64,000 bases of DNA from a virus: IMG/VR virus record IMGVR_UViG_3300000976_000009, positions 173,151-237,150 of that record; one strand, 5' to 3'. The position numbers and the translations under genes were made by a program. This document shows, piece by piece, positions 10,658-32,598 of this stretch. Each line of letters begins with the position of its first letter. The stretch's first letter is position 1. The notes under the pieces were generated by a model. It did not search any database. It saw only the letters and a list, made by a program, of their open reading frames with translations, and was not told the origin of the DNA.

Positions 10658-10687
10658 TTGCTAATTAAAATAACTTTAGTATCTTTG
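10658..10687 (+). promoter_or_regulatory. Bacteroidota sigma70 promoter of tRNA array 1
   Basis: TTG-N19-TATCTTTG. Confidence 0.8.
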
Positions 10688-10746
10688 TAGTATATTTAAA
10701 AACAAGGGGTAACCCTTAATAGAAATAAAAAACAAAAACATTTTCA

Positions 10747-10830
10747 ATGCAAACAATTGTAAACATATTAACACTTAACTTAGTCTTATGCCTAGTGGTA
10801 TTAGACGGGTCGAGCTATGTGTTTATGTAA
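10747..10830 (+). CDS. leader peptide 1, MQTIVNILTLNLVLCLVVLDGSSYVFM (Leu/Val/Cys-rich)
   Basis: A-rich translation start, 27 codons, 3' end overlaps the antiterminator strand. Confidence 0.8.
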   Translation: MQTIVNILTLNLVLCLVVLDGSSYVFM

Positions 10831-10886
10831 GTATAGAAAACTTAAACATATTTAAGCTCGATTCGTAACTGAATCGAGCTTTTTTT
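10811..10886 (+). terminator. attenuator 1: antiterminator and intrinsic terminator
   Basis: Terminator AAGCTCGATTC-GTAACT-GAATCGAGCTT+T run; competing pairings CGAGCT:AGCTCG and ATGTGTTTA:TAAACATAT. Confidence 0.85.
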
Positions 10887-10899: not shown

Positions 10900-10983
10900 G
10901 CCTATGTGCTTGAGTGGTCGAAAAGTGCGGTCTGCAAAACCGTAAGGGAAACCTCATCGTTGGTTCGAATCCAACCATAGGCT
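10900..10983 (+). tRNA. tRNA-Cys(GCA), long variable arm
   Basis: GCGGT-CTGCAAA-ACCGT; T-loop TTCGAAT; U73. Confidence 0.8.
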
Positions 10984-11000
10984 CAAAAATAAAACAATAG

Positions 11001-11071
11001 GTCGGGGTGACCGAATGTTTAGGTAGTTAGCTGCAACCCTCCTTATGCTGGTTAGATTCCATTCCCCGACT
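11001..11071 (+). tRNA. degenerate tRNA-Cys(GCA)
   Basis: GTCGGGG/CCCCGAC acceptor, CTGCAAC loop, mismatched anticodon stem. Confidence 0.5.
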
Positions 11072-11103
11072 CTACAATAATGTAATAACTAAAAATGAGG
11101 GTT

Positions 11104-11447
11104 ATGAAACAGGGGTAACAAATAAGACTAGAGAATTTAGAAAACAATTCTTAGTCGAACGAGAACACACAGGAAGAGAAATAGTCACTTTCTGGGAAAC
11201 GGGTAAATCATATTTTATTGAATATATTGAACCGAGAAGCATGAATAAGAGTGGTTGGGGTGATATTGACCCAGCGACTAAAAAGGTAACTGGTTCTTAT
11301 GGTAATAAGTACAAAGGTGCAATTAAAGCAGATGAATCTATGATTACTAAAGAGAATGGCTTCGAAAATATTATTGAAGGAATGGGTTCTCCATATGCAC
11401 AAATTGAATGGATGCATAATAAATGGAAAACTGAAAATGGATACTAA
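11104..11447 (+). CDS. hypothetical protein, probably frameshifted near its start
   Basis: Frame of ORF 11241-11447 is open far upstream; ATG at 11104 joins it if the GGGG run had one more G. Confidence 0.45.
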
Positions 11448-11619
11448 AAATGGATACATTAAGAAGTATAAAATTGACTAGAGAACAAAAAAAAGAAATA
11501 AGGAAAATAGTCAATAGATACATGAGGAAGCAAAGAAATCGAAAGATTAGACAACTAAAAGAATGGTTGGTGCTTCATAAGAATTAAATAAAGTGGAAGG
11601 TTGTAATTCCTTCCAATAT

Positions 11620-11691
11620 TGGAGTATAGCTCAGCTGGAGAGCGGGTGTGTTACATGCACTAGGTCGGGGGTTCGAATCCCCCTACTCCAA
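11620..11691 (+). tRNA. tRNA-Val(TAC)
   Basis: GGTGT-GTTACAT-GCACT cloverleaf. Confidence 0.8.
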
Positions 11692-11698
11692 CTAAAAT

Positions 11699-11770
11699 GC
11701 TCTGTGGGTGTGATGGTTAGCATACTTGTTTTACATGCAAGTTGAGTAGGTTCGATTCCTACACAGAGTA
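11699..11770 (+). tRNA. tRNA-Val(TAC)
   Basis: CTTGT-TTTACAT-GCAAG. Confidence 0.8.
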
Positions 11771-11777
11771 CAAATAT

Positions 11778-11858
11778 GGGGATGTGGCGAAATGGTTCAC
11801 GCAGCGGTTTTAGAAACCGTATCTTAATTGACTGTGGGTTCGAATCCCACCATCCCTA
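11778..11858 (+). tRNA. tRNA-Leu(TAG)
   Basis: GCGGT-TTTAGAA-ACCGT, variable arm. Confidence 0.85.
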
Positions 11859-11872
11859 CTAAAAATTTATAT

Positions 11873-11952
11873 TGCGGGTGAGTGAAACGGATATATAAAT
11901 CATTCTGGGCTCATAACCCACGAGATACTAGGTTCGACTCCTAGACCCGCTA
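11873..11952 (+). tRNA. initiator-type tRNA-Met(CAT)
   Basis: GGG-CTCATAA-CCC, 1:72 mismatch. Confidence 0.75.
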
Positions 11953-11958
11953 CAAGAT

Positions 11959-12029
11959 GGTTCCATAGTTTAATGGGAGAACGTCACCTTGACATGGTGA
12001 TAGCGAAGGTTCGATTCCTTCTGGAATCA
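11959..12029 (+). tRNA. tRNA-Val(GAC)
   Basis: TCACC-TTGACAT-GGTGA. Confidence 0.85.
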
Positions 12030-12044
12030 CAAATAGTACTACAC

Positions 12045-12133
12045 GGGGGTGTGGGCAAATTGGAAAAGTCAGTGGGTTTAAGCCCCACGGTAAACGTAAG
12101 ATACATCTGCGGGTTCGAGTCCCGCCACCCCTA
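12045..12133 (+). tRNA. tRNA-Leu(TAA)
   Basis: GTGGG-TTTAAGC-CCCAC, variable arm. Confidence 0.8.
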
Positions 12134-12145
12134 CTAACTATTCAT

Positions 12146-12233
12146 TGCGGGGTAGTGTAATTGGTAACATGCTGGGCTCATAACCCAGAGAAGCGGTAAC
12201 ACCGTGTTCTAGGTTCAACTCCTAGCCCCGCTA
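12146..12233 (+). tRNA. initiator-type tRNA-Met(CAT) with long variable arm
   Basis: CTGGG-CTCATAA-CCCAG, 1:72 mismatch. Confidence 0.75.
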
Positions 12234-12239
12234 CAAGAT

Positions 12240-12324
12240 GGTCGCATGGTGGAATTGGTAGACACGCCAGACTTAAAATCTGGTGCCCATTACGGGCGTG
12301 TGGGTTCGACTCCCACTGCGACTA
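12240..12324 (+). tRNA. tRNA-Leu(TAA)
   Basis: CCAGA-CTTAAAA-TCTGG. Confidence 0.9.
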
Positions 12325-12350
12325 CAAGGGGTTCGAAGTACAAGAACCTT

Positions 12351-12434
12351 GGCGATATGGTGAAACTGGTAAACACAGCCTCGGATGGGGCGGGGTTTGA
12401 CTCCCCACTGTTGGTTCGACTCCAACTATCGCCA
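12351..12434 (+). tRNA. Leu-type tRNA body with a 4-nt anticodon loop
   Basis: Intact acceptor, D, variable and T arms; GCCTC-GGAT-GGGGC. Confidence 0.6.
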
Positions 12435-12437
12435 CAA

Positions 12438-12524
12438 AGGATGATTACAGCAAATGTAACTAGGTTAAAAAACATGATTCAAACTCAAGTTCAGATGGTT
12501 CAAATCCATTAAATTCATCATCCT
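12438..12524 (+). ncRNA. stem+TACAGCAA RNA with anticodon(CAA)- and T-arm mimics
   Basis: AGGATGAT/ATCATCCT closing stem; TGA-TTCAAAC-TCA; ATGG-TTCAAAT-CCAT. Confidence 0.65.
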
Positions 12525-12530
12525 GTCCAT

Positions 12531-12614
12531 CCCCAAGTGGTGGAATTGGTAGACACGCTGTCCTAAGAAGGCAGTGCTAGTAATAGCGTGTGGGTTCGAC
12601 TCCCACCTTGGGGA
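12531..12614 (+). tRNA. tRNA-Leu(AAG)
   Basis: CTGTC-CTAAGAA-GGCAG. Confidence 0.85.
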
Positions 12615-12619
12615 CAAAT

Positions 12620-12701
12620 GGGGGTATGGCGGAACGGTATACGCAGCAGTTTCAAAAACTGTGGTCCTAGAGACATGTGGGTTCGACTCCCATTACCCTT
12701 A
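12620..12701 (+). tRNA. tRNA-Leu(CAA)
   Basis: GCAGT-TTCAAAA-ACTGT. Confidence 0.85.
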
Positions 12702-12743
12702 CTAAAATTAGGGGTTCTAATTTATTTAACTTATATTTGTATT

Positions 12744-12905
12744 ATGAATGATGAATTTTATAGTTTGGTTATGTTTCCTTATCCATCTGGTGATGGATTA
12801 CATGTTGGTCATTATTATAATTATGCGATTATGGATTCATTTAATCGTTGGAAGAGTATAAAGGAATTAAGGTGTTTCAACCATTTTAAAATGGTTTATC
12901 CCTAA
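12744..12905 (+). pseudogene. leuS: leucyl-tRNA synthetase N-terminal fragment
   Basis: MFPYPSGDGLHVGH is the LeuRS HIGH signature; only 53 aa. Confidence 0.8.
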
Positions 12906-13614: not shown

Positions 13615-14248
13615 GGCATATAATAAAGTCATTCTAGATGAGTTCTGGAATGGATTAGAAGAAGAACTCCAATTAGATGAATCCGATAGTGGATTAAAAA
13701 ACTTAATTGGTCAAGCAAATGAAATTATATTCGAAAAATTTCAAATTAATCCAGTTGATAGAGAATACTGTATAGTTGGTTCAGCAAGATTATACTTATA
13801 CCCACAACTTAGAGATGCCTTTGGTTTAGAAGGAACAATTGGTGACCTAGATATGGTTATACCAGATAAAAAACATTGGATTCAAGCTGGATTAGAAGAA
13901 AATTGGAATAAAGGTGGTATATATAGACCAACTGATGATGGTTCTATTGAAGCATTTAATGTGTGGGACCCAGCAAGAGCTGGTGGAGAATATGCAGATG
14001 TCCAAGTTAGGTCAACCCAAGAGGTAGTTAAAGATGGTACATTAATTAATGGATATTATTTTATGTCATTACAGGACATTATCGATTATAAAATGTCTAT
14101 GAATAGAGAGAAGGAACAAGATGTAGTTAGTCTTATTTCAGCATACCAAAAGAGTGGTTCTTCAAACAGAATGGATTTACTTAGGAGAATGGCTAAAGTC
14201 ATTGGGTTTGATAAAACTAAAGAATTTTTAGGTAGGGTAGGTAAATAA
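13601..14248 (+). CDS. nucleotidyltransferase-fold protein
   Basis: IVGSARL..GDLDMVI..K..MNREKEQD. Confidence 0.55.
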   Translation: MKLTEAYNKVILDEFWNGLEEELQLDESDSGLKNLIGQANEIIFEKFQINPVDREYCIVGSARLYLYPQLRDAFGLEGTIGDLDMVIPDKKHWIQAGLEENWNKGGIYRPTDDGSIEAFNVWDPARAGGEYADVQVRSTQEVVKDGTLINGYYFMSLQDIIDYKMSMNREKEQDVVSLISAYQKSGSSNRMDLLRRMAKVIGFDKTKEFLGRVGK

Positions 14249-14322
14249 TTAAAAAAAATACTCTTAAAATACAATAAAAATAAGGGTTTTGAAAAAAAAA
14301 TAAAAAAAAATAGTGAAAAAAC

Positions 14323-14352
14323 TTGCCATTTAATAAAAGTTTTGTATCTTTG
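14323..14352 (+). promoter_or_regulatory. Bacteroidota sigma70 promoter of tRNA array 2
   Basis: TTG-N19-TATCTTTG. Confidence 0.8.
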
Positions 14353-14405
14353 TACCATACTTATAAACAACGAGACTAAATTTAGTCTTACAAAAATAAA
14401 AAAAA

Positions 14406-14495
14406 ATGAACACATTAATTAACATATTTGAATTTAGCTTTGAAGCTGCCGAGGATGATTGCATCTTGGGAAGGTCAAGTTATGTCAAAAGTTAA
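14406..14495 (+). CDS. leader peptide 2, MNTLINIFEFSFEAAEDDCILGRSSYVKS (Phe/Glu/Ala/Asp-rich)
   Basis: A-rich translation start, 29 codons, ends similar to leader 1. Confidence 0.8.
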   Translation: MNTLINIFEFSFEAAEDDCILGRSSYVKS

Positions 14496-14552
14496 GTGTT
14501 AAAAAACATAAACTAAACATTACAAGCCTTCCAGAAACGGAAGGCTTTTTTT
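14469..14552 (+). terminator. attenuator 2: antiterminator and intrinsic terminator
   Basis: AAGCCTTCC-AGAAAC-GGAAGGCTT+T run; competing pairings GGAAGG:CCTTCC and AGTTATGT:ACATAAACT. Confidence 0.85.
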
Positions 14553-14562
14553 ATGCACATAT

Positions 14563-14634
14563 GTGACCTTGGAAGCAGCGGTACTTCGCTTGGTTGAAGC
14601 CCAAGAAAGCTCGGTTCGAATCCGAGAGGTCACA
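14563..14634 (+). tRNA. tRNA-Phe(GAA)
   Basis: CTTGG-TTGAAGC-CCAAG. Confidence 0.8.
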
Positions 14635-14639
14635 CACAT

Positions 14640-14712
14640 AGCCCCATCGACTAGCGGTCAAGGTCGCCACCCTCTCAAGGTGGAAACATCGGTTCGAATC
14701 CGATTGGGGTCA
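14640..14712 (+). tRNA. tRNA-Glu(CTC)
   Basis: CCACC-CTCTCAA-GGTGG. Confidence 0.85.
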
Positions 14713-14722
14713 CTAAGATTTA

Positions 14723-14734
14723 GTTCTTTGACAT
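14723..14734 (+). promoter_or_regulatory. boxA-like antitermination site
   Basis: GTTCTTTGACAT, also present at 32769. Confidence 0.6.
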
Positions 14735-14747
14735 ATTGAAATGATTT

Positions 14748-14819
14748 GGTGCGGTAGCTCAGAGGTAGAGCAGTAGGTTGAAAACTTACGTGTCGGGGGT
14801 TCGAATCCCTCTCGTACCA
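14748..14819 (+). tRNA. tRNA-Phe(GAA)
   Basis: GTAGG-TTGAAAA-CTTAC. Confidence 0.9.
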
Positions 14820-14825
14820 CAAAAT

Positions 14826-14900
14826 GCTCGGTTCGTCTAACGGCTAGGACGGGTGGTTTTCAGCCATCAAATAGGGGTTCGATTCCCCTACCGAGTACCA
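14826..14900 (+). tRNA. tRNA-Glu(TTC), encoded CCA
   Basis: GGTGG-TTTTCAG-CCATC. Confidence 0.85.
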
Positions 14901-14948
14901 AGTGTCAGTTTCTAGTGGTTCTGAACGAAATAAAATTTCACTAATTTT

Positions 14949-15020
14949 CGCCCGTTCGTCTAACGGTTAGGACGTTAGGTTTTCAACCTAAAAATAGGAG
15001 TTCGATTCTCCTACGGGTGA
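14949..15020 (+). tRNA. tRNA-Glu(TTC)
   Basis: TTAGG-TTTTCAA-CCTAA. Confidence 0.85.
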
Positions 15021-15090
15021 CTATGTTAATAAACACTGCAATGTTTATTACAGAAACCAATGAACTATTTGCAGATAGGTAAGTTGGTTT

Positions 15091-15162
15091 TGAATGTTCG
15101 TCTAGCGGTTAGGATACTGCCCATTACGGGTGGAGACACGGGTTCGAATCCCGTACATTTAA
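15091..15162 (+). tRNA. Glu-type tRNA body with aberrant anticodon loop (CATTACG)
   Basis: Glu-like D arm TTCGTCTAGCGGTTAGGA; loop lacks U33. Confidence 0.55.
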
Positions 15163-15232
15163 CAAACGCCCGTTGAGATATTACGAATCGATAGGGAGAA
15201 TGAGTATGACTGTTAGGAAAGACTAACAATAT

Positions 15233-15307
15233 GGTCCAGTGGACGAAATTGGTTTAGTCGTCACCCTTTCAAGGTGAAGGTTGCGGGTTCGATTCCCGTC
15301 TGGACTA
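15233..15307 (+). tRNA. tRNA-Glu(TTC)
   Basis: TCACC-CTTTCAA-GGTGA. Confidence 0.85.
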
Positions 15308-15318
15308 CTAAAAACTAC

Positions 15319-15391
15319 GGTCTGTAGGTCAAATGGTTAAGATGCCTCCCTGTCACGGAGAGCGGAGCGGGTTCGACTCCCGTATGGACCG
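15319..15391 (+). tRNA. tRNA-Asp(GTC)
   Basis: CTCC-CTGTCAC-GGAG, G73. Confidence 0.8.
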
Positions 15392-15399
15392 CAAAGTAA

Positions 15400-15470
15400 C
15401 GTCCATTGGTGTAATGGTAACATGACTGGTTGTCTCCCAGTTGCTAAGGGTTCGATTCCCTTATGGACGG
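15400..15470 (+). tRNA. tRNA-Asp(GTC)
   Basis: ACTGG-TTGTCTC-CCAGT, G73. Confidence 0.8.
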
Positions 15471-15481
15471 CATAATCACAC

Positions 15482-15554
15482 GGCTGGTGTGGTGTAACGG
15501 TAGCATACTTCCCTGTCACGGAAGAGGTTCGGGGTTCGAATCCCCCATCAGCCG
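15482..15554 (+). tRNA. tRNA-Asp(GTC)
   Basis: CTTCC-CTGTCAC-GGAAG, G73. Confidence 0.85.
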
Positions 15555-15561
15555 CAATAAT

Positions 15562-15637
15562 GGTCTAGTGAGCCCCATTGGTAGGGGATTTGCACTGTCT
15601 CTGCTCAAAAACGAGGGTTCGACCCCCTCCTAGACCC
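15562..15637 (+). tRNA. divergent tRNA-Asp(GTC)
   Basis: GCA-CTGTCTC-TGC with bulged stem. Confidence 0.55.
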
Positions 15638-15640
15638 CAT

Positions 15641-15710
15641 GAAGTCATAGTTTAGTGCAAGAACGCCACTTAGACGGGTGGAAATACGAGTTGGATTCTC
15701 GTTGACTTTA
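15641..15710 (+). tRNA. degenerate tRNA, 6-nt anticodon loop
   Basis: GAAGTCA/TGACTTT acceptor; CCACT-TAGACG-GGTGG. Confidence 0.45.
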
Positions 15711-15720
15711 CAAATATTTT

Positions 15721-15797
15721 GGGGGCACATGTCCCAAGGCTGGCGAGGTAGGTTTGCACCTTCCCTGTGGTGGGTTCGATTCCCACTGTCTCCACCA
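15721..15797 (+). tRNA. tRNA-Ala(TGC), encoded CCA
   Basis: G3:U70 pair, TTTGCAC loop. Confidence 0.7.
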
Positions 15798-15809
15798 AAA
15801 TAACATAAT

Positions 15810-15882
15810 GGGGCTATGGTGAAACTGGCTATCATCGTTGACTTGCACTCAGCAGTTCCGAGTTCGAACCTCGGTAGCTCCA
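15810..15882 (+). tRNA. tRNA-Ala(TGC)
   Basis: GGGGCTA/TAGCTCC acceptor, GTTGA-CTTGCAC-TCAGC. Confidence 0.85.
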
Positions 15883-15883
15883 C

Positions 15884-16048
15884 ATGAATGATAAATTTAT
15901 TAAAGATGTTGATTATTATATTAAAGATGGTAATCTAATAATGACAAAATCTTACCACATTAAACGAGGACAATGCTGTGGTAATAATTGTAAACATTGT
16001 CCATTTAACCCAAGATATACAAAAGGGGTGAGAGAAATTAAAAACTAA
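15884..16048 (+). CDS. small Cys-rich protein (DUF5522-like)
   Basis: MNDKFIKDVDYY...KRGQCCGNNCKHCPF; 54 aa, below the ORF track cutoff. Confidence 0.7.
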   Translation: MNDKFIKDVDYYIKDGNLIMTKSYHIKRGQCCGNNCKHCPFNPRYTKGVREIKN

Positions 16049-16130
16049 TAAAAATGAAAGAATTGGAGGCGATAAGCTAAAGAGAATCGAAGAGAGTAAA
16101 AATAATGTCGGTTCTCGCAACGATAGAAAG

Positions 16131-16550
16131 TTGAAGAAATACTCTCAGAAGTTTAACAAGATGTTTGATTTCTATTTAAAAGTATACAGAAGCGGACTAA
16201 TCATATTTTGTGGTGTTGGTGTAGAAGTAGATTCTGATATTAATGGTTCAGATGGTAAGTTTGGATTCAGAGAATATGATAATGGTAGATTTAAGTTTAA
16301 GACACCAATCACCAGACACCCTAATATATTAAGAGGGGTGATTACTGGAAAGAAAGGTTGGGGACTTTGGGTTGAACAATGGTCACAAGGGATTGTTGAT
16401 TGGTCATTCACAAAAGAAGAAATACTTAAAGAATTTACTGATAGAGATATAGAAATACCAGAACCTTTAATGAAGGAATGGGATAAATTAATTGAGAGAA
16501 AGAAAAAGAAGCGTAACTCAGATTATTTTGATGAGTTACAAAATAAGTAA
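16131..16550 (+). CDS. hypothetical protein
   Basis: 139 aa ORF. Confidence 0.55.
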   Translation: MKKYSQKFNKMFDFYLKVYRSGLIIFCGVGVEVDSDINGSDGKFGFREYDNGRFKFKTPITRHPNILRGVITGKKGWGLWVEQWSQGIVDWSFTKEEILKEFTDRDIEIPEPLMKEWDKLIERKKKKRNSDYFDELQNK

Positions 16551-16554
16551 TAAT

Positions 16555-16678
16555 GGACGTATGGTGTAATGGTAGCACGGTTTAAAAAAGGTAATCTGAT
16601 TACTAAAGATTATTTTCAGCAACATATACAAATTTGCCTGTCACGCAAGAGGTGGGGGTTCGATTCCCTCTACGTCCG
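16555..16678 (+). tRNA. tRNA-Asp(GTC) with ~53-nt insertion between D arm and anticodon arm
   Basis: GGACGTA/TACGTCC-G; TTGC-CTGTCAC-GCAA; insert is A6 + hairpin + TTCAGCAA. Confidence 0.75.
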
Positions 16679-16710
16679 CAACATTTCAATATTAGGGGAT
16701 ATTTATTAGT

Positions 16711-17295
16711 ATGAAAACGTTAATTAAAAAACTCCTTAGAGAAGGTCTTATAAATGAAGGTAATAACCTAATTGCTTATCATGGTTCACAACATAAGATA
16801 AAGAAATTTACAGATGATTTTGTTGGTGGTGCTGAGGCTAGAGACCAAGAGGGACCAGGTATTTACTTCACAACCGAAGAAAAGGAAGCACTTGAATATG
16901 CAAAAGGTGGTGGTTACATATATAAGGTAAATCTATCATTAGGTAAACTAGTATCTAATGAACCTAATATGGATTTAGATTACTTAAGTAAACCAATTTC
17001 AAAATTAATTAACGCAGCACCCAATTGGGAAAGAGTAGCTAGAGGTTACGATGATGACATCGAAGAAGGTAAATATGAAATGATTCATAAATACGTTGGT
17101 ATGGCTATGAGTGAGAAGGAGGCATTTGTTGGTATGTATGGTGATGTATATAAAAATGCACCAACAGCATATGTTAGAAACATGACTAAATTAGGTTATG
17201 ATGGTGTTAATCTACCAACGGCTGGTGGTGGGGCACATATTGCAGTCTACAATACATCAGCTATTCAAATTATTGATGCTAAGCAAATCAAGTAA
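16711..17295 (+). CDS. ADP-ribosyltransferase-fold protein (H-Y-Y type, PolyVal-ART-like)
   Basis: AYHGS..GPGIYFT..ALEYA..LGYDGV; N-terminal MKTLIKKLLREGL. Confidence 0.6.
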   Translation: MKTLIKKLLREGLINEGNNLIAYHGSQHKIKKFTDDFVGGAEARDQEGPGIYFTTEEKEALEYAKGGGYIYKVNLSLGKLVSNEPNMDLDYLSKPISKLINAAPNWERVARGYDDDIEEGKYEMIHKYVGMAMSEKEAFVGMYGDVYKNAPTAYVRNMTKLGYDGVNLPTAGGGAHIAVYNTSAIQIIDAKQIK

Positions 17296-17346
17296 ATCGT
17301 TTACATTTTCCATGATTTATATTATACTTAAACAAAAGTAATAATC

Positions 17347-18423
17347 ATGGAAAATATCGTTTATCACCCTAATCGGGTGTCGAAAGAAGAAAAAAACTTA
17401 AAACAAAATCACAAATCACCAGTAATCTGGTTAACAGGGTTGTCCGCTTCTGGTAAATCAACAATTGCAAATAAATTAGAACAAATATTATTTGAAATGG
17501 GGGTTAAAACCCAAGTACTTGATGGAGATAATATTAGACTTGGATTAAATAAAGATTTAGGTTTTACAGACAAAGACCGTAAAGAAAATATGCGTAGAAT
17601 CGCAGAAGTAGCTAAATTATTTTCAGACTCTGGAACATTAACTATCGCTGCATTCATATCCCCTTTTGAGGTAGAAAGACAATTATGTAAAGAAATTATT
17701 GGTGAAGATAATTTTATTGAGATATTTGTTAATGCTGATTTAGCTACTTGTGAGGAAAGGGACCCAAAAGGGTTATACAAAAAAGCTAGAGCTGGAGAAA
17801 TACCAATGTTCACTGGTATTGATTCCCCATATGAGAATCCAACCAACCCAGATATTAGTATTAATACATCAGTTTTTTCGGTTGACTTTTCAGTTGATTT
17901 TATTATCCACCATTTAGTAGATAATTGTTTTATTTCAAAATTAGATAATACTGTTTGGAATAAAACAAATCATGGAGGTGAGCCAACTAAAAATTTAGAT
18001 AAAAAAAGGGCAGTATTTATCGGTAGATTTCAACCATATCATCAAGGTCATATATCTTTAATTCAACAAAAAATTGATGAAGAGATACCAGTATTAATTA
18101 TGGTAAGGGATATATACCCAGATGAAAAAAACCCATTCACAACAAAGCAAACTGTTGACATGATAGAAAAATACCATTATAATAGACATAATGAAGATGT
18201 TGAAATTATGATAATTCCAGATATTGAATCAGTTAATTATGGTAGGGGTGTTGGATATGAAATTAATGAATATATACCACCAGAACATTTAGGATGGATA
18301 TCAGCAACTGAAATAAGAGAATCAATTAAAAATGGGAATAATGACTGGAGAGAACTAGTCGATAAATCAATCCAAGAGGATGTAGTAAAATATTTAACAA
18401 ATGAAGACAAAGAGAACACATAA
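17347..18423 (+). CDS. cysC: adenylyl-sulfate kinase fused to a cytidylyltransferase-like (HxGH) domain
   Basis: WLTGLSASGKST, LDGDNIR, RDPKGLYKKA, FTGIDSPYE; C-terminal FIGRFQPYHQGH. Confidence 0.9.
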   Translation: MENIVYHPNRVSKEEKNLKQNHKSPVIWLTGLSASGKSTIANKLEQILFEMGVKTQVLDGDNIRLGLNKDLGFTDKDRKENMRRIAEVAKLFSDSGTLTIAAFISPFEVERQLCKEIIGEDNFIEIFVNADLATCEERDPKGLYKKARAGEIPMFTGIDSPYENPTNPDISINTSVFSVDFSVDFIIHHLVDNCFISKLDNTVWNKTNHGGEPTKNLDKKRAVFIGRFQPYHQGHISLIQQKIDEEIPVLIMVRDIYPDEKNPFTTKQTVDMIEKYHYNRHNEDVEIMIIPDIESVNYGRGVGYEINEYIPPEHLGWISATEIRESIKNGNNDWRELVDKSIQEDVVKYLTNEDKENT

Positions 18424-18563
18424 TTTTATTAATAGCTGGAGACCATCCAGTAAACAAAAAGATAAAGTACAAATTGAATTAAGGGTTGGAAGATTAACAA
18501 TTTTTGGGTTAGCGTTTGATATTTCTAAAGGTAGTTTTAGAATTATGATATTAAATATTGGAT

Positions 18564-18788
18564 ATGAAACCAAAAATTGATAGGAAGAGACACCTATTAA
18601 AAGCCATCACTTGGAGAATTATTGCATCACTAACTAGTTTTTTTCTTGCTTGGGGTGTAACTGGTAATATTAAAGCTGGCTTATCTATTGGTGCTGCTGA
18701 TGTAGTAATTAAATTTGTGTTATATTATTTTCATGAAAGAGTATGGTATAGTTACGATTTTGGTGTTAAACATAAAGATAAAAACTAA
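18564..18788 (+). CDS. DUF2061 family membrane protein
   Basis: RHLLKAITWR...LYYFHERVW. Confidence 0.8.
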   Translation: MKPKIDRKRHLLKAITWRIIASLTSFFLAWGVTGNIKAGLSIGAADVVIKFVLYYFHERVWYSYDFGVKHKDKN

Positions 18789-18893
18789 TTAATTTTAGAT
18801 TAATTATAATTTTATTTTGGTAGATACAAATTATTTTTATATATTTGTACTCAACAAAGACTAATATTGGTCGAAACAATAAATATTATAATT

Positions 18894-19220
18894 ATGAGTA
18901 AATTTGCAACAAAATTATCTGCTTCAAACAAAGATATTAAAGCAGATAGAGCAGAAATGTTATCAGAAGAGGTAGCATTAGAGGTTAATGAATTTGTTAG
19001 TGGGTTAAAGAAAGAGAAAATTAAACTTAGAAATAAGGTTGCTCGTCTTACTGATTTGGCTCCAGATTCTAAGGATTCTTTAAGACCAACTTCTAAAGAT
19101 TTTTGTGCCTCTACTTGGGTAGCTGAATTGCACCAAGCAAAAATGGATTTAAAGCTCAAAGAGATTGAATTAGAAATTGCTAATGGTATCGAAAAAGAGT
19201 GGTTCTCTGATGAGGATTAA
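18894..19220 (+). CDS. hypothetical coiled-coil protein
   Basis: ORF after a TTTGG..TATATTTG promoter. Confidence 0.6.
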   Translation: MSKFATKLSASNKDIKADRAEMLSEEVALEVNEFVSGLKKEKIKLRNKVARLTDLAPDSKDSLRPTSKDFCASTWVAELHQAKMDLKLKEIELEIANGIEKEWFSDED

Positions 19221-19653
19221 AGTTTACTTCTCAAAAACTAACAGAACTAACCCAGATGATGAATCTATGGTTAGGTCTGTTTTATCAGATTTCAATGATA
19301 TAGAGATAGTTGAATATAAAAGTGGGTCAAGAAACTTAGCTAATATTAAAGGATGTGACTATTTAATTATATTTCCAAATTATATAGATAAACATATCGA
19401 TTCAGATTGGGTTGGATTAAGTTTAAGTCAATATGATGAGTATTGTGCATTTAAAGATGTAAATTATTCAATGGATAATTCCAACATAATGTTTGTTACT
19501 GATACAAATCAACATTATAGATATATAAGGTTTCAAAATGATTTTGATTGTGATGAATCAGATGACCCAAATAATTATTTATATATAGAGAATACAATTA
19601 GAGGCATATTTGAAGATAGATTTGGTTTATCAGTTAGTAAATCACATTTATAA
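19210..19653 (+). CDS. TIR/NDT-like fold protein (paralog A)
   Basis: KVYFSKTN..NPDD..CDYLIIFP. Confidence 0.45.
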   Translation: MRIKVYFSKTNRTNPDDESMVRSVLSDFNDIEIVEYKSGSRNLANIKGCDYLIIFPNYIDKHIDSDWVGLSLSQYDEYCAFKDVNYSMDNSNIMFVTDTNQHYRYIRFQNDFDCDESDDPNNYLYIENTIRGIFEDRFGLSVSKSHL

Positions 19654-19691
19654 TCAATGAAATCAAATTATTATCATTTAATAGGTTAATT

Positions 19692-20144
19692 ATGAAGAAG
19701 GTATATTTAGCAAAATCAAATAAATGCAATCCAGATAATGTTCAAATAATTAGAAAACTTTTGAAAAATTATGATTGTGAAATTATTGAACATAAGGGTG
19801 GTTCCTTTTCACATAAACCAATGATGAAATCAGATATATTAATTGTTTTACCATATTTAGAGGAATATGTAGAAAATAATATTGTTGGTAGGGGTTTATA
19901 TTCTCAAATAGAAGAATTTGAAAGAACAGGTAAACCTTGTTTAGTTGTTTATAATATTGATAAACAAATTTCGGTTGGTAATATTATTGATAAAGAGGTT
20001 TTAGATTATAATGACTTTTTCGAATATGGTGAAGTATGTGTTGACCCAGTTGGACCACTAAAAAATTCATTAAATGAATTCTTTGGACTATCTACTGATG
20101 TATTAATGAGTAAAAAAAATAATTATTTACTTATTTGTAAATAA
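19692..20144 (+). CDS. TIR/NDT-like fold protein (paralog B)
   Basis: KVYLAKSN..NPDN..SDILIVLP..GRGLYSQIEE..GKP. Confidence 0.45.
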   Translation: MKKVYLAKSNKCNPDNVQIIRKLLKNYDCEIIEHKGGSFSHKPMMKSDILIVLPYLEEYVENNIVGRGLYSQIEEFERTGKPCLVVYNIDKQISVGNIIDKEVLDYNDFFEYGEVCVDPVGPLKNSLNEFFGLSTDVLMSKKNNYLLICK

Positions 20145-20652
20145 TTTTTAAAATAAACTTGCAAGTTTGAAATATTAATTATAAATTTGCACAGTTAGAA
20201 ATAACAAAACGTTTTTTGAAATCTTGGAGTAATTAAAAATAATGTTTGGTAGTACAAAGATAGAGCGGTGCTCGGTAGGTACATTAACGAGGTAGGGACC
20301 AAATACATATACAGAATGCAGTTCTATTTGTCTTGCAAGACTAGAACAGGTAAACATTATCCCCTTAATTGGATTAGTGTAGGTTAAAATGGTGGTTCAA
20401 ATCCCTCATTCTGTGCAAAATTGGGGTGTTGGTCGCACAGGTCCTTGACGGACTGTTATTCTAGATGTGCATTGTGGTTCGATTCCACGTACCCCAGCAA
20501 GTCTCAGTTAGAAATGACAATAATTAAATTAATAAGGTTGAACCCCTTAACCACTTAGACAGACAGAGACAGGTTCTGTAAGTAAATTATGAGGAATAGT
20601 AGGTATAGTTTATTCTAGGCTCTGCGGGAAGTGCACTTCTACTAGAATGCTT

Positions 20653-20725
20653 GGTGACGTAGCTCAGTTGGTAGAGCAATGGATTGAAGCTCCATGTGTC
20701 GCTGGTTCGAATCCAGCCGTCACCA
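20653..20725 (+). tRNA. tRNA-Phe(GAA)
   Basis: Canonical cloverleaf, ATGGA-TTGAAGC-TCCAT. Confidence 0.9.
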
Positions 20726-20869
20726 CGAAATCTTGCCTATATCAGCACCGCTAGTTTTATAGGATAGTTAAATACCTACCCCGTGCAGAAACGATTGCAG
20801 TCGTCTGTGGTAGAGGTGTTTATAAAATACGATATAGGACTGAGACGAGCGGGAAAACCTATATCACAT

Positions 20870-20982
20870 GGAAAGGTAGCTCAGATAGGTATATAGTAGA
20901 TAACATGTTATTAGATGATATACTTCGGTAGAGCAATGGGTTGAACACTCATGTGTCGTTAGTTCGAATCTAACCCTTTCCA
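20870..20982 (+). tRNA. tRNA-Phe(GAA) with ~40-nt D-loop insertion
   Basis: AGCTCAG-[insert]-GGTAGAGC; ATGGG-TTGAACA-CTCAT. Confidence 0.7.
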
Positions 20983-22389
20983 CAGGTCTGGATGAATGTT
21001 ACAAGAGACGGAGCTTTTTAAATGTCTAAACAGTAACCACGTTTGATTTTCGTGATGAACTAATCTGCTGGGTAGTGCCCAAAAGAAAAACCACTACATG
21101 GGGAAAATCCAGAAGTAACTGGTAAATCGGCTGGCGTTAATCGCACGGAATCAAGTCGTAATTAGGGTGAACAAAAATCCGTTATACCTTAAGATTGTAA
21201 GTTAAAATCTTACTTTCTCCACAAGTTCGCTCCACGCTGGGGAGATTTGTTTCTTATCTCCTATGATGAGGCAGAACACCAAAATATCAGCTGAGAAGTG
21301 TGATTGAGGTTATTACTGTAGAAAAACAGGTGCAAGCAACTTTACTAAAACATCTCTTATGGAGGTTTGGTTCATACGAATAGATATTGTTCTATTGAAG
21401 GTACAGTTTGGGCTAAAAACATCATATAAGAGTTCTCGGAAGTTTGAGAAGACGTAATTTTAAAAGAGATGACATCGGGAAAGACTGAAATTTGGGTTGG
21501 GAGTTACGATTGGTTGAATGGTTCCTATTAGTACGGAACACCAAGGCAGAACATTAGTTTATTTGAGTGGCTTAAGACACGAAATGATTTAGGTGGGTCT
21601 GTATTAGGTTCGGGCGAATCCCGAAGGTTGCTGGTTCGAATCCAGTTCAATCCACGAATCTCAATACACATAGTCAGTGTATTAAATGTTGCATAACAGA
21701 CTCAGTTAAAAAAATGAGAGAGCAACGGAAGGAAAGTTTTCGCAAACCTACTTAGCTTTTGTAAGGTAAAAGCAACTTGGGGGTGTAACCAATTGTGGGT
21801 TATTGATGGGGCAATACCATCCACCTCCACAACTAACCACCAATGCCTCTGCTAGCATGCACAATTTTGGTATCGAAGGAAAACTAGTTAGTACTGAGAC
21901 AGAGTTAAGCGATTCTCTAGGGTAGTTAAAATCGCAAATGGGGTTATCACGCCTTTTGGATTACGTTGGAAAGTTACAACCAACGCCTTTGGGTAATATT
22001 GGTAAGTCGGTAACATATTATAAGGTGTACATAAATGTACTAGTTACACACTACTTGTAATGTAAGAATGATAATGTTGGTTCGAGTCCAACTAATCCCA
22101 CTAGTGGTAGTTTGATTGAATGCTTGGGTCGCTCTTAAGTTGAAGGTTAAATATTACTTGCTCGAAGGGTCGCTCCCAAAGAGTCCCTTAGAAGTTCAAT
22201 TGGCTGAACGCCCTCTCGATGGGGGAGGCTGAGGGTTCGAACCCCGTCTAAGGTACAAAGAAGCTAAACGTATAATAGCTTTGGTGATATAGAGCAGTTG
22301 GTAGCTCAGTTGGCGAGGGAGTAATTCCGAACCGAAAGGTCATAGGTTCGACTCCTATTATCACTACAAGCGTGTCCCAACACGTTAAT

Positions 22390-22520
22390 AAGGTTAAAAA
22401 ATTGTTACAGCAAATGTAAAAACTTGTATGTGAAACAACAGGACTAGGTTCGAATCCTAGCATAGAGATGGGAACTATGTGGTGTAATGGTAGCATTGAT
22501 AAAAAAGCAATTTTGCCCTT
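22390..22520 (+). ncRNA. circularly permuted tRNA-His(GTG)-like RNA on a stem+TACAGCAA module
   Basis: Order is anticodon arm, T arm, loop-closed acceptor (CATAG/CTATG), D arm; ends pair AAAATTGT/GCAATTTT. Confidence 0.75.
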
Positions 22521-22994
22521 TATGGAGTAAGTGTATGTCTGTCATAATTCGTATGAGTTATGATTTTGGGTTCGATTCCCATTTACCCCACAATATTAGT
22601 GGTGAGTCCTACTTAGCCTATTTTCATAGGGGTACAGGTACTTAATGAATGTATAACAGCTACTAATTTTTGAGATGGCTAGGAATGCGTGGAGTCATGA
22701 CCACAATGGGAGTTCAATTCGACCACATCTCACTAAAGAATGAGAGCCCAATTGGGTAACTCGCAGTGCGTTTAACAGACCAACTGACACACGTTTGAGT
22801 GGTAGTAATTACCCACGATAATTTTATACCTCTATCATCTGGTAACACTAGTGTTACCTTGTGAAACGTATAGTTGTGAAGGGACTGTGTGCCGAATCTT
22901 GAATTCCGTGACTTGGGATAGGGGTGTCAACACATGGGTTAAGGTAAGCCAGTCGGTTTAGTCACCGAGAAATTGTTATCTCATTCTTTTTAAT

Positions 22995-23135
22995 AGGGAA
23001 GTAGCTCAGTTGTTTAGAGCGTGTGGAAAGCAACCTTAGCTTAGATTATATCTAAGTATCCGAAAGGGTATTCCGTTAGGAAATAAGGTTTGGTTGTGAG
23101 TACCAAGGTCGTTGGTTAGAGTCCAACCTTCTCTA
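22995..23135 (+). tRNA. tRNA-like RNA with large multi-hairpin insertion in the anticodon arm
   Basis: AGGGAAG/CTTCTCT acceptor, GCTCAGTTGTTTAGAGC D arm, T arm. Confidence 0.6.
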
Positions 23136-23160
23136 CTAATAATAAATAAATTAGTTAACT

Positions 23161-23370
23161 ATGAGTAAAGTAACAGTAATTTTAAATCGTGTAAATTCAG
23201 AAGCACAAGGTGGTTTTGATAAAGAGGTAATTACATTAGCTATAGACCCAAACTGGTCAATTCCAGCAGTACATAGGGTAAATGGTCATAATTATGAGGC
23301 TAGACAAAAAGGTCAAGAAGGTGGTGTTGTAACATATTCTTTGTGTGATTCTGCTATTCCACAAGATTAA
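23161..23370 (+). CDS. small hypothetical protein inside the ncRNA island
   Basis: 69 aa, A-rich translation start. Confidence 0.55.
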   Translation: MSKVTVILNRVNSEAQGGFDKEVITLAIDPNWSIPAVHRVNGHNYEARQKGQEGGVVTYSLCDSAIPQD

Positions 23371-24246
23371 AATGGGTCTCAGAGTGCCAGCTCCTATAGA
23401 ACCTCCCCAGAGGCGGAAGCAAGCAAGGATATATGGTTGTAGCGGTAGTTCTGAGTAACCTATTTAAGATAATGTCGTTCCCTTAGCGGGGTTCATGTGC
23501 TTATGACGAATACCCAGTGTGGTCGCTTAATTGAAGTTCGTTAGACTATTTTTTAGATGTTGTTCTTTCGTGGTCTTAAAATATGAAGGGAAAAACATTT
23601 TAATTGGAGATTTGAACATATAGAGTTCAAGGGTCTTACCTTCCGTGATGGTGACTAATTCGGAGAGCGAAAACGAGAGTAGCTAGACCCTACAAACAGA
23701 AGAATGTTAAATCTATTAGTAAGTCATAGTCTTTGCTGACAATGGGTGCTAATATGTCTGGGCTACGTAGCAGACGTTTAGGTATGAGGGGCAGAACCTC
23801 ACTCCAGTTCAATTGGTGAGAGATACCAATAAAGTTTACAAGGTACTTCAAAAACTTGAGGCTGATATACCCACGGTCATACAGAGGGGTCTGATTGGAA
23901 TATGGGTATTACTAAACCCACCACAGCGATAGTTGACTTTTTATTGGTAGTAAGACACCATTTGTTTTTGAAAAGGAAAAACATTGAACATCTAGCATAC
24001 GGAATCTCAATATGTGACATTGGTTAAAGGAGATTGATTTCGACTTTAACCACATAAATGTGAAAAGAGTGCGCTCGATGATATTAATATCATAATTAAC
24101 ATAGACGGGTTCGACCAGAGGCTGGCATGAGATGTAGGTTTAAGAAAGGTGATAAACACGGATTAGTTCCGACCTATTATTAATTAACGTTAGGACTACC
24201 AATATTTCACATAAAAAATAATTATAACCATTAAATAAATAAAACA

Positions 24247-24561
24247 ATGGAATTAACAGAAATTGGGGTTAAAAAAGAACTCTACAAGTCAAAAGTAATG
24301 GCTAATTTTAGTCGAGTAGAAAATGGTGTTTTATATTATACAGTCCAACTGGAATCTGGTCTTTATGAAATTCCATTAAGATTAGAAGAAGAGAAAATTA
24401 TTACCATTAATGATGGTGAAGATGTTTTAGCTTCATTTACAATTACTAGACCGACACCAGATATGAAGGGTGCTTCATTTGGACCAGAGGTTAAAGGGTC
24501 AGACCTTAACAGATGGATTGCAAAAGCAATGAAGACTGATGACTTTAAAAGAGTTGGATAA
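24247..24561 (+). CDS. hypothetical protein
   Basis: 104 aa ORF. Confidence 0.65.
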   Translation: MELTEIGVKKELYKSKVMANFSRVENGVLYYTVQLESGLYEIPLRLEEEKIITINDGEDVLASFTITRPTPDMKGASFGPEVKGSDLNRWIAKAMKTDDFKRVG

Positions 24562-24585
24562 TAACGTAGTTCTAAATAATAAAAA

Positions 24586-24945
24586 ATGAGAAGAACAGGT
24601 AATAGAACGATTACTGTCAATAAGCAAAAACTTATGGACAAAATCAAAGAAAATAAAGAAAACCACATTGTTGAATATGAAAAGGCAGTTGCTGCTTATA
24701 AGAAAGAGGCATTAAAGCAATTGGAGAAACAAATTAACGCAGTTAATAATGGTTCACTTGAAGCTAGATTAAATCTAATCACTCCAATAGATAACCGAAC
24801 AAATTATGACAAGATTCTTGACATGTTTGAGTGGGAAGAGGAAGAATTAGTTACACTTGAACAAAGTGAATTCAATGAATATGTTCAAGATGAAACTGAA
24901 TTTGCTAGGCAAGCTAAGTTTTCAAACATGAGCTATTTAGGTTAA
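24586..24945 (+). CDS. hypothetical phage protein
   Basis: 119 aa ORF followed by a terminator. Confidence 0.65.
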   Translation: MRRTGNRTITVNKQKLMDKIKENKENHIVEYEKAVAAYKKEALKQLEKQINAVNNGSLEARLNLITPIDNRTNYDKILDMFEWEEEELVTLEQSEFNEYVQDETEFARQAKFSNMSYLG

Positions 24946-25070
24946 AACTAAGGAAATGGGGTTTATTTAGGTAAATCCCATTATTTTTTTTGTAAAAAGT
25001 TTGGTAGATACAAAAAGATTGTTTATATTTGTAGACAATTAGAAACGAATATTAATTTAAATACTAAAAA

Positions 25071-25772
25071 ATGAGTTGGAAAAGTTTAATTTTTGCTGGT
25101 CATAATAAAGATGATGACAAAAAGAAGAAAGAACCTACTGATAATGCTCAGACTTCTTTTAAAAGTAAATTCCCGTCAAACGGTCCAATAACTGAGACTA
25201 AAACGGAAACCCCAGCGGTTGTAACTAAAACAGCACCCGCAATTACCCCAAGTAACCCAGCATGTGCACCCCATCTGGATAAAATTATGTCCATGTATGA
25301 AAAAGGCTTTGAAGGTCTTAATATGGAAGGTTTTGATTTCTATGAATTTTTTAAGATGGTTGTAGAAGGTGGTGTTGATAACCCACAAATGTATGGCATG
25401 GCATTTACTGCCGCTAAGAGTATGGGTTCAACTAAGCAGAGTTTATTAGACCAGTCTAACTATTACATAACTGAAATTCGGAAAGTTCATAACAATTATG
25501 TTATGGCTGGTGATAAAAAACGTCAAGAAGCGATTACTTCTAAAACTACGGAGGAAACGTCACTTAAAACTGAATTAATTGGTATTGATTCTGAACTAGA
25601 AAGACTAAATGATTTAAAGAAGCAAAAAGAAGCGGCTTTAAAAGATATTGATAATAAGTACGAGCCAACAATTACAGAAGTTGAATGTAAATTAATGGCA
25701 AATGACATGGCTATGGAAGGTATTGTTGGTTCCATACAAAAAGTCGTAAATGGAATAACCAACAATATATAA
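25071..25772 (+). CDS. coiled-coil protein of the ABC/OmpA cassette
   Basis: 233 aa; promoter upstream. Confidence 0.7.
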   Translation: MSWKSLIFAGHNKDDDKKKKEPTDNAQTSFKSKFPSNGPITETKTETPAVVTKTAPAITPSNPACAPHLDKIMSMYEKGFEGLNMEGFDFYEFFKMVVEGGVDNPQMYGMAFTAAKSMGSTKQSLLDQSNYYITEIRKVHNNYVMAGDKKRQEAITSKTTEETSLKTELIGIDSELERLNDLKKQKEAALKDIDNKYEPTITEVECKLMANDMAMEGIVGSIQKVVNGITNNI

Positions 25773-25794
25773 CATAACTAAATTAAAAAAAAAG

Positions 25795-26892: not shown

Positions 26893-27066
26893 TAGATACT
26901 AACAATGTGGGGTGCTAGCACCCCACATTTTTTTAAAAAGTAAAAAAAAAATAAAAATAATTACAAATATATTTGGTAGATACAAATAAACTTATTATAT
27001 TTGTAATGTCTTAACGAAGAGACAAAAAAACAAAAACAATTAAATTTAACATTAAAGAAAAGAAAA

Positions 27067-28896: not shown

Positions 28897-29040
28897 GCAT
28901 ACATAAAGATAGATATAGAAAAAGGTCTTGCAATTGCAAGACCTTTTTTTTTTTGTTTAAAATAAGTCTAAATAAATTTGGTATAATGGATTATTATTAT
29001 TATATTTGTAATCTAAATAATTAATTAAAATAAAGTAAAA

Positions 29041-29532: not shown

Positions 29533-29542
29533 ATTAAAAAAA

Positions 29543-30310: not shown

Positions 30311-30313
30311 AAT

Positions 30314-31131: not shown

Positions 31132-31236
31132 TATTTAACTATAACACTTAAGCAAAAAGTCTCCAAAATGCGGAGACTTTTTTGTTATTGTAGATATTTA
31201 TAGATATGAAAACAAGTAATTTAATAACAGAAACTG

Positions 31237-31491: not shown

Positions 31492-31523
31492 AACTTCAAA
31501 CCCTTGATTTATAGGAATAAAAA

Positions 31524-31889: not shown

Positions 31890-31922
31890 AATCGTATATT
31901 TGCAATAAGAAAAAAAATTAAC

Positions 31923-32585: not shown

Positions 32586-32598
32586 TAATAGTTATTAA

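Follow-up and report, generated by a model that had tools for sequence, protein, structure and literature searches.

Why phages carry transfer RNA (tRNA) genes is a long-standing question, for which the main rival answers are codon compensation and the replacement of host tRNAs that have been destroyed. The locus described here raises it in a particular form: why does a block of phage tRNA genes for four amino acids stand behind a short open reading frame (ORF) rich in codons for the same four? The window, which is the whole stretch of DNA analysed, comprises 64,000 nucleotides of the IMG/VR virus record IMGVR_UViG_3300000976_000009 (positions 173,151 to 237,150), and the unit in question, A2, lies at 14323 to 16678. 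It consists of a promoter, a leader ORF (leader 2), a terminator and an array of tRNA genes for Phe, Glu, Asp and Ala. On the modelling and comparisons given below, the unit is probably a ribosome-dependent transcription attenuator of these tRNA genes and one of four paralogous units in the phage. The phage's own genome record is labelled G000, and its four tRNA units and their arrays are labelled A0 to A3. All features with window coordinates that are called plus below share the strand of leader 2.

Unit A2 begins with a Bacteroidota-type promoter (14323 to 14352, plus), with TTG near -33 at 14323 and a TAnnTTTG box at 14345 to 14352, from which transcription would start at about 14357. A small 5' hairpin (14372 to 14389, plus) is followed by an A-run reaching the ATG, with no Shine-Dalgarno sequence; similar hairpins occur in leader 1, in all three leaders of the relative G002, and in leader 2 of the relative G014. 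An earlier note on this DNA, made from its letters alone, had placed the leader at 14406 to 14495 (plus) and its sensor run at 14427 to 14459 (plus), had paired GGAAGG with CCTTCC, and had located a terminator downstream; all of these lie where it put them, and the leader translates to the peptide it gave. The leader ORF has 29 codons and is predicted to fold into a protector hairpin, 1:2, when free of ribosomes (-20.5 kcal/mol; equally stable in 4 of 200 shuffles). The sensor comprises codons 8 to 18, of which 10 of 11 specify Phe, Glu, Asp, or Ala. Segment 2, the antiterminator strand, runs from GGGAAGG to TTATGTC (14468 to 14486, plus) and is predicted to pair with the terminator 5' arm in a 2:3 helix (-17.0 kcal/mol; 2 of 200 shuffles), in which GGAAGG at 14469-74 faces CCTTCC at 14527-32. 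The predicted intrinsic terminator, 3:4, is a nine-base-pair stem followed by seven T residues (14524 to 14552, plus; hairpin 14524 to 14547, -14.6 kcal/mol, matched in stability by 0 of 200 shuffles), and as a sequence feature it is a U-tailed intrinsic terminator upstream of the regulated tRNA genes. The 1:2, 2:3, and 3:4 helices are thus predicted as the mutually exclusive set of an attenuator.

The match between leader and array was the center of the earlier claim, and its improbability is borne out by calculation. A run of 10 in-set codons out of 11 has a binomial p of 3.7e-6 (1.6e-3 for all codons 2 to 18), such a run is found in none of 2756 real 28-codon ORF blocks, and of the 4845 sets of four amino acids that are possible, a single one attains 10 of 11, namely the set of array 2 itself. 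Of the 11 codons that follow the switch boundary, none belongs to the set. The other arrays carry His/Trp/Ser/Asn/Ile/Met/Arg (A0, outside the window), Cys/Val/Leu/Met (A1), and Pro/Gln/Tyr/Thr/Gly/Lys (A3), so that with Phe/Glu/Asp/Ala the four jointly cover all 20 amino acids and Met alone is common to two; A0 and A3 are the further leader/array pairs for which the earlier note had suggested a search. When the four units are tested jointly, 41 of 59 leader codons match their own array, a value reached by 0 of 200,000 random partitions (null mean 13.8, maximum 36). For this test, leaders 1 and 2 contributed their codons 2 to 18 and leader 0 its remnant of 8 codons, leader 3 of G002 stood in for the truncated copy, and Met was counted with A0. 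Since short ORFs and hairpins occur often and the run of 11 codons had initially been chosen by eye, chance has to be considered: an ORF of this size in AT-rich DNA between genes might merely happen to be rich in set residues. This explanation is refuted at the sequence level by the uniqueness of the matching set, the partition test, the occurrence in four relatives, and the cognate pairing described below, and we assign it practically no probability.

The switch was modelled as a co-transcriptional snapshot: the transcript reaches as far as the terminator loop, and the ribosome blocks positions A-15 to A+12, an assumed footprint. In the snapshot of leader 2, segment 2 occupies the terminator arm with P of at least 0.85 when the A site is at codons 2 to 18 and of at most 0.06 at codons 19 to 28. 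The switch boundary thus coincides with the sensor's end; among the remaining complete phage leaders it falls at codon 18 or 19, less cleanly in the relatives L011 and L015. For the ribosome-free RNA, the predicted fold is the 1:2 hairpin across the ORF together with the terminator, an arrangement that PMC3082878 describes for pheL. While the A site is on any of codons 2 to 18, segment 2 would stay free and could capture the terminator 5' arm ahead of the synthesis of the 3' arm; a ribosome stalled on the Phe, Glu, Asp, or Ala codons of the leader would in this way let RNA polymerase read into the matching tRNA genes. A ribosome beyond codon 18 would cover segment 2, and the terminator would form. 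Host RNA polymerase and host ribosomes would presumably operate the switch, through leader translation, pausing, coupling, and termination, and the signal would be any shortage of usable tRNA for the sensor codons. The new tRNAs would relieve the stall, which amounts to a negative feedback.

Leader 2 was found by pattern searches in four relatives, G002, G014, L011, and L015. One of the three viral hits of the leader-flank pattern was true (G002), as were 2 of its 14 metagenome hits (L011 and L015), while G014 came from another search, whose one further hit was again G002; the remaining leader-flank hits were rejected because they had no tRNA or leader context. The reading frame is kept in all five leader-2 copies, and the ATG lies in an A-rich context in all eight complete leaders. 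Phe, Glu, Asp, and Ala tRNA genes stand behind leader 2 in all three relatives that have downstream DNA; L015 stops at the terminator. Changes in the sensor are either synonymous or within the set (Glu/Asp, Asp/Ala), and the lone out-of-set position alternates between Ser and Asn, while the last ten residues of the leader vary freely among orthologues. Each of the five copies has a different terminator 5' arm, and the changes in the arm are accompanied by changes in the coding segment 2. No permutation of the five orthologues (120 in all) has a better summed duplex energy than the cognate combination of segment 2 and terminator arm, and the same is true for the four paralogues (24 permutations) and the eight distinct leaders (40,320). 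Codon statistics, predicted switch geometry, cognate pairing, and relatives together support the attenuator reading that the earlier note had put forward.

Two assemblies bear on the letters of the unit. A contig of run X1 spans 14000 to 32577 with zero differences to the window, but this run may be the source of the window DNA and is then not independent, and X2 derives from the same sample as X1. A contig of X4, from a different study, covers the leader and the first tRNAs at about 90% identity.

Other searches for relatives returned little. The exact promoter pattern gave 0 viral loci, the search with a neighbouring protein gave no relatives, the leader-2 sensor pattern gave 0 loci in GTDB, and the leader-3 pattern matched G002 only. 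The single hit of the leader-0 pattern lay within a long ORF with no nearby tRNA and was rejected. Terminase-related loci numbered 34, mostly fragments; among the 10 searched, nine were without a tRNA and one had a single tRNA. The terminator filter, applied to partial tRNA regions of Flavobacterium phage immuto and of LR756508, found no site; the single tRNA region of PP395634 lay outside this comparison. In a related phage, G004 (L072:2750-3950), Bacteroidota promoters recur in a row, with a short ORF and a terminator behind every one, and no tRNA was called beside them.

A terminator-like hairpin lies within 300 bases of 6 of the genome's 114 promoter motifs, and the tRNA arrays are headed by 4 of these 6; 63 of 82 relaxed tRNA calls lie in the four arrays, and 56 of these 63 fall within the set of their leader. 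Sister unit A1 (10658 to 10886, plus) has a promoter, a 27-codon Leu/Val/Cys leader (10747 to 10830), a terminator, and an array of Cys, Val, Leu, and Met tRNA genes at 10900 to 12702. Directly after its Leu tRNA genes lies a short ORF (12725 to 12865), the start of which we take to resemble the N-terminus of leucyl-tRNA synthetase. Sister unit A3 (32556 to 32726, plus) has a promoter, matched codons from 32599 to a stop at 32670, a terminator, and an array of Pro, Gln, Tyr, Thr, Gly, and Lys tRNA genes at 32791 to 35970. In leader 3, rare synonymous codons are over-used (P at most 0.0001) and 11 distinct codons occur against 8.2 (P 0.011), as if the leader were sampling isoacceptors; for leader 1 such synonymous-codon sampling is borderline.

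In A0 and A3 the matched codon runs (8 of 8 and 6 of 7) have no start codon in the record. Two of the four recorded units therefore carry matched codons without an in-frame start, which would suit a sensor that reads tRNA directly without a ribosome, in the manner of a T-box. The start losses, however, sit at a 49-nucleotide promoter repeat common to A0 and A3, which in X1 forms a separate contig at double depth. The X1 contigs that follow the repeat carry 92 and 116 letters before the point of fit, and X2 agrees for A0. With an overlap of about 30 letters allowed, about 62 bases (A0) and about 86 bases (A3) appear to be lost from the record, at G000:C1:154272-154320 and window 32556-32598, respectively. 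An assembly error is most likely the cause, the start codons would lie in the missing bases, and the idea that these two leaders are decayed or free of start codons was dropped given the extra letters. In addition, leader 3 of G002 is complete with its ATG, the ATG context is shared by all complete leaders, and the Rfam T-box covariance model gives no match. A functional leader peptide, the companion of this alternative, has against it the free variation of the C-terminal residues. Direct tRNA sensing or a functional peptide is thus extremely unlikely, and a ribosome-read leader remains the preferred account of all four units.

The earlier note had called leader 2 an independent replicate of leader 1 and had described a modular attenuator with a swappable sensor and shared ends. 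The different sensors do provide separate codon matches, but the two leaders are homologous (score 22 against a shuffle mean of -17; 0 of 1000 shuffles as high) and are paralogues rather than independent inventions; the homology of leader 3 is weaker (8 to 13 of 1000 shuffles). The shared ends form the base of the predicted 1:2 helix (AACATA with TATGT) and not a conserved peptide. As for swapping, the 49-nucleotide promoter repeat is common to A0 and A3, the top of the terminator is common to A1 and A3 in G000 and not in G002, and in G014 a leader-2 sensor is joined to an A0-like antiterminator. These signs suggest an exchange of parts between units, and the swappable module of the note is borne out only in part.

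A wider comparison came from a short element within the array. The sequence GTTCTTTGACAT (14723 to 14734, plus) is shared with the Bacteroidota 16S-23S ribosomal RNA (rRNA) spacer and also lies in arrays A0 and A3. The motif GTTCTTTGA(C/A)AT has three copies in the genome, in A0, A2, and A3, against 0.47 expected (window 14723 and 32769; G000:C1:154756); it also occurs in G002 and L011, and the X4 relative is without that stretch of A2. An 18-base version returned 121 loci from GTDB, mostly Bacteroidota, with 23S rRNA just downstream in 16 of 20 loci tested and tRNA-Ala before the motif in 72 of 121. By its position we take the motif to be boxA, and we assume for it the role in antitermination that goes with this name. 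Its presence in three arrays suggests that host antitermination is used for untranslated tRNA transcripts, and the element probably shields the array transcript from premature termination.

The same motif leads to cellular counterparts. Two of the 121 loci combine promoter, leader ORF, terminator, motif, and tRNA cluster. A T-run together with the motif occurs in 50 of 401 same-family genomes, and 6 of the 50 examined loci have tRNAs behind the motif, one of them being the already found G017; a few hits of this search were left unfetched. The phage-like layout is present in seven cellular Flavobacteriaceae genomes (G016, G017, G148, G157, G182, G228, and G248), at L194:8260-9503, L195:10600-12390, L246:10200-12800, L247:6700-8600, L249:7900-9700, L232, and L206, each with promoter, mixed leader, terminator, motif, and tRNA cluster. 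In all seven, an ORF of 36 to 43 codons ends 46 to 56 bases before the T-run, and the predicted switch geometry is as in the phage. Six of the genomes have mixed arrays, with 4 to 21 tRNAs, and in G182 one tRNA was seen. The leaders contain 16 to 20 different amino acids, and 4 of 7 rank in the top 7% of background windows, some of the genomes being close kin. Mixed leaders go with mixed arrays and sorted leaders with sorted arrays. Because the mixed cellular arrays have mixed leaders, it is plausible that the leaders explain the sorting of the phage tRNA genes by amino acid, as the earlier note had proposed. Common descent of phage and cellular leaders was considered and is not established, since DNA homology is weak: with leader 2, only 2 of 7 comparisons have at most 2 of 500 shuffles as high, while ACATA near the start is found in 6 of 7. 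RtcB and an RF-1-domain gene adjoin the arrays in G016, G017, and G248, and an SPFH gene follows four arrays; the neighbour scan covered selected ORFs only in G148 and G157 and none in G182 and G228.

These cellular loci also bear on a different use of the same device. The attenuator could be real and report any slowing of ribosomes, as under host shut-off, ribosome damage, or antibiotics, in which case the four arrays would be opened at once, with the codon match as a refinement of secondary importance. The cellular mixed leaders before mixed arrays adjoin rtcB and RF-1-domain genes, modelled stalls at the out-of-set codons 2 to 7 also hold the terminator arm, and PMC8421152 reports that translational stress of a general kind induces the Anabaena L-array. 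A general gate of this kind would nevertheless have no need for four array-specific sensors, which are kept in 41 of 59 codons, nor for leader-2 substitutions that stay within the set across five phages, and we regard it as unlikely. The class-specific attenuator is therefore retained as the preferred reading.

Several observations weigh against this reading. At full-length equilibrium, the terminator of leader 2 has P 1.00 at every stall position, and values of about 0.99 to 1.00 are found for L015, G014, and most of G002 leader 1; clear equilibrium switching is confined to some positions of G000 leader 1, L011, and G002 leader 2. Since the terminator wins at equilibrium, the leader-2 switch is only possible co-transcriptionally, as a matter of kinetics. 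The ribosome-free snapshot is ambiguous (P 0.67), the switching result depends on the assumed ribosome footprint, and the L015 snapshot is unstable if the RNA behind the ribosome may refold. Synonymous-codon sampling is non-significant in leader 2 (P 0.42 and 0.72) and significant only in leader 3, and the sensor contains a GCC codon for which array 2 has no Ala(GGC) gene. The permutation tests of pairing ignore relatedness, and in 3 of the 7 cellular leaders diversity does not exceed the background. Finally, the four arrays leave out 19 of 82 relaxed tRNA calls, many of them weak, and in A0 and A3 the attenuators could be bypassed from internal promoter-like sites, of which none that is convincing occurs in A2.

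The equilibrium result and the ambiguous ribosome-free state are what would be expected if the hairpin were a fixed damper that sets constant read-through, or a processing boundary with a post-transcriptional role. The matched codons would then be a relic, or would aid loading, processing, or stability of the tRNA precursor. Such a damper gives no role to the compensation between coding strand and terminator arm that is cognate in every relative, nor to the fact that the sensor ends where the switch boundary falls, and we judge it very unlikely.

The content of array 2 agrees in most respects with the earlier description. The main block (14563 to 15883, plus) holds two Phe, one Glu(CTC), three Glu(TTC), four Asp, and two Ala genes together with two degenerate elements. 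At default settings ARAGORN calls Phe(GAA) x2, Glu(TTC) x3, Glu(CTC), Ala(TGC) x2, and Asp(GTC) x3; the fourth Asp gene, at 15562, appears at the relaxed threshold only, and a fifth Asp(GTC)-like gene with an insertion of about 50 nucleotides (16555 to 16678, plus) was found by Rfam. The five Asp genes listed by the earlier note are thus present once these calls are included, while its statement that only these tRNAs occur does not hold, given the degenerate tRNA-like elements at 15091-15163 (TTA at the anticodon position) and 15641-15711 (TAG, weak). Twelve of 14 relaxed ARAGORN calls in the array belong to Phe, Glu, Asp, or Ala. The two degenerate elements are possibly decoys or pseudogenes, and blast hits in three relatives contained no full-length counterpart with the same anticodon. 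A call with a CTA anticodon lies at G000:C1:151233. Several isodecoders differ in the flanks of the anticodon loop. A 139-residue ORF (16131 to 16550, plus) inside the array span has no Pfam or PHROG match.

A recurring ACAGCAAA-like motif is found in tRNA-sized elements amid the tRNA genes (window 12446, 16615, 22406, and 33920; G000:C1:145911, 146340, 146772, and 166922), one copy of which sits within the insertion carried by the Asp-like gene (16555). Right after array 2 follow a gene of the ART-PolyVal ADP-ribosyltransferase family (16711 to 17295) and a fusion of APS-kinase and cytidylyltransferase (17347 to 18423). Protein genes also occur inside the tRNA arrays, such as a PD-(D/E)XK endonuclease in A3 (window 34946 to 35326), and by eye G002:C1:24320-24930 and G000:C1:155940-156370 and 157070-157500 look like homing endonucleases.

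The virus record has 353,143 bases, direct terminal repeats, and a G+C content of 31.7%, and the phage, a jumbo phage, encodes T4-like terminase, portal, major capsid, and sheath proteins. The best named matches of its capsid protein are distant (Microcystis phage Mel-JY01, 43%; Flavobacterium phage immuto, 38%), and DNA comparison against 136 records gave tRNA-sized matches only and no close named phage. The host is probably a member of the Bacteroidota because of the TTG...TAnnTTTG promoters, the A-rich starts without Shine-Dalgarno sequences, a Bacteroidales small signal recognition particle (SRP) RNA, and the rRNA-spacer element. The Bacteroidota promoter consensus and its 4-5 nucleotide spacing follow the accessible part of PMC6847099. 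Promoters of the sigma-70 type were rejected, the scan being at chance level (8 against 8.7). The SRP RNA (23363 to 23469) lies in a region of about 4 kb nearly free of long ORFs (20150 to 24200), behind a promoter without a terminator, which also holds a tRNA-Phe and several tRNA-like elements and probably contains further unrecognised RNAs.

Leader-peptide attenuators of amino-acid operons include trpL, hisL, and the multivalent thrL and ilvL. Unlike these, the phage unit has tRNA genes and not enzymes as its output, leader 2 would sense four amino acids with no long run of a single codon, segment 2 lies inside the ORF at 7 to 8 codons before the stop, and four paralogues divide the 20 amino acids. 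In pheM-pheST, leader-peptide attenuation controls phenylalanyl-tRNA synthetase. There, as proposed here, the supply of charged tRNA feeds back on a part of the translation machinery, but pheM-pheST serves a chromosomal synthetase for one amino acid and the phage unit serves tRNA genes. In T-box riboswitches, tRNA status sets the choice between terminator and antiterminator through one specifier codon, whereas in the phage 11 codons of an ORF would serve as the sensor. None of the Rfam leader families reaches its threshold, the best being Phe_leader (26.9 bits against 55), on the terminator only. With pheL-pheA of E. coli, as described in PMC3082878, the unit shares a short ORF that contains control codons, the 1:2, 2:3, and 3:4 pairings, which are here predicted, and a U-tailed terminator. 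Stalling, which frees segment 2 in pheL-pheA, is predicted to do so here in the co-transcriptional snapshot, but at full-length equilibrium the terminator of this leader forms regardless. The unit thus has the sequence-level features of a leader-peptide attenuator and appears to work like one, outside the described families.

L-arrays, according to PMC8421152, are arrays of extra tRNAs that neighbour genes for RNA processing and translation, rtcB among them; the arrays stay silent until translation is impaired, and Bacteroidetes are among the phyla concerned. The phage arrays resemble them in being long arrays of extra tRNAs near such genes, but are carried by a phage and sorted by amino acid. 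L-arrays are mixed and unsorted, and the same source describes the control of the Anabaena array as acting via promoter direct repeats, which overlie the -10 box and the start site, and a proposed repressor; its accessible text contains neither of the strings 'attenuat' and 'leader'. Some of the cellular cases above may also be among the Bacteroidetes arrays in Dataset S1 of PMC8421152. Phage tRNAs can also act in counter-defence against tRNA-cleaving systems, as tRNA-Tyr of T5/SP15 counters retron-Eco7 (PMC11555353), and an anticodon-loop hypothesis has been advanced (PMC10264068). The replacement of depleted host tRNAs proposed here is similar, but for those tRNAs the accessible parts of both papers describe a strong promoter and no sensing step, and 'attenuat' has 0 occurrences in that of PMC10264068. 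No report of leader-peptide attenuation of tRNA genes was found in the open-access literature searched, outside which most subscription journals lie.

What the switch would respond to can be approached from its surroundings. By reasoning, a stalled ribosome cannot distinguish uncharged from destroyed tRNA, and extra tRNA genes would be of little help in amino-acid starvation but would directly repair a loss of tRNA. The tRNA region of the phage encodes Rnl1-type and Rnl2-type RNA ligases, a protein of the poly(A)-polymerase/CCA-adding family, an RF-1-domain protein, transfer-messenger RNA, and glutaminyl-tRNA synthetase, these translation-support genes lying round the arrays at G000:C1:142604-172908 and window 37832 to 39424; RtcB was looked for in the phage and not found. 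Because of the neighbouring RNA-repair genes, tRNA damage is somewhat more likely than plain starvation as the trigger. A tentative extension, which we hold to be possible but not probable, is a four-channel monitor in which each attenuator senses the loss of its own tRNA class to tRNA-cleaving host defences and opens the matching tRNAs. The monitor would have arisen by duplication and specialisation of an all-amino-acid leader that gated the spare tRNA arrays of Flavobacteriaceae RNA-repair islands.

With a sensor ahead of every tRNA block, the purpose of phage tRNAs becomes testable, as the signal that opens the switch is what the tRNAs serve. If the attenuator reading is true, attenuation by ribosome stalling extends from enzyme operons to tRNA genes, the sorting of arrays by amino acid has a reason, and a mechanism is at hand for the stress induction of spare tRNA arrays in Bacteroidota. 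The leaders could then also report which tRNA class a defence system attacks.

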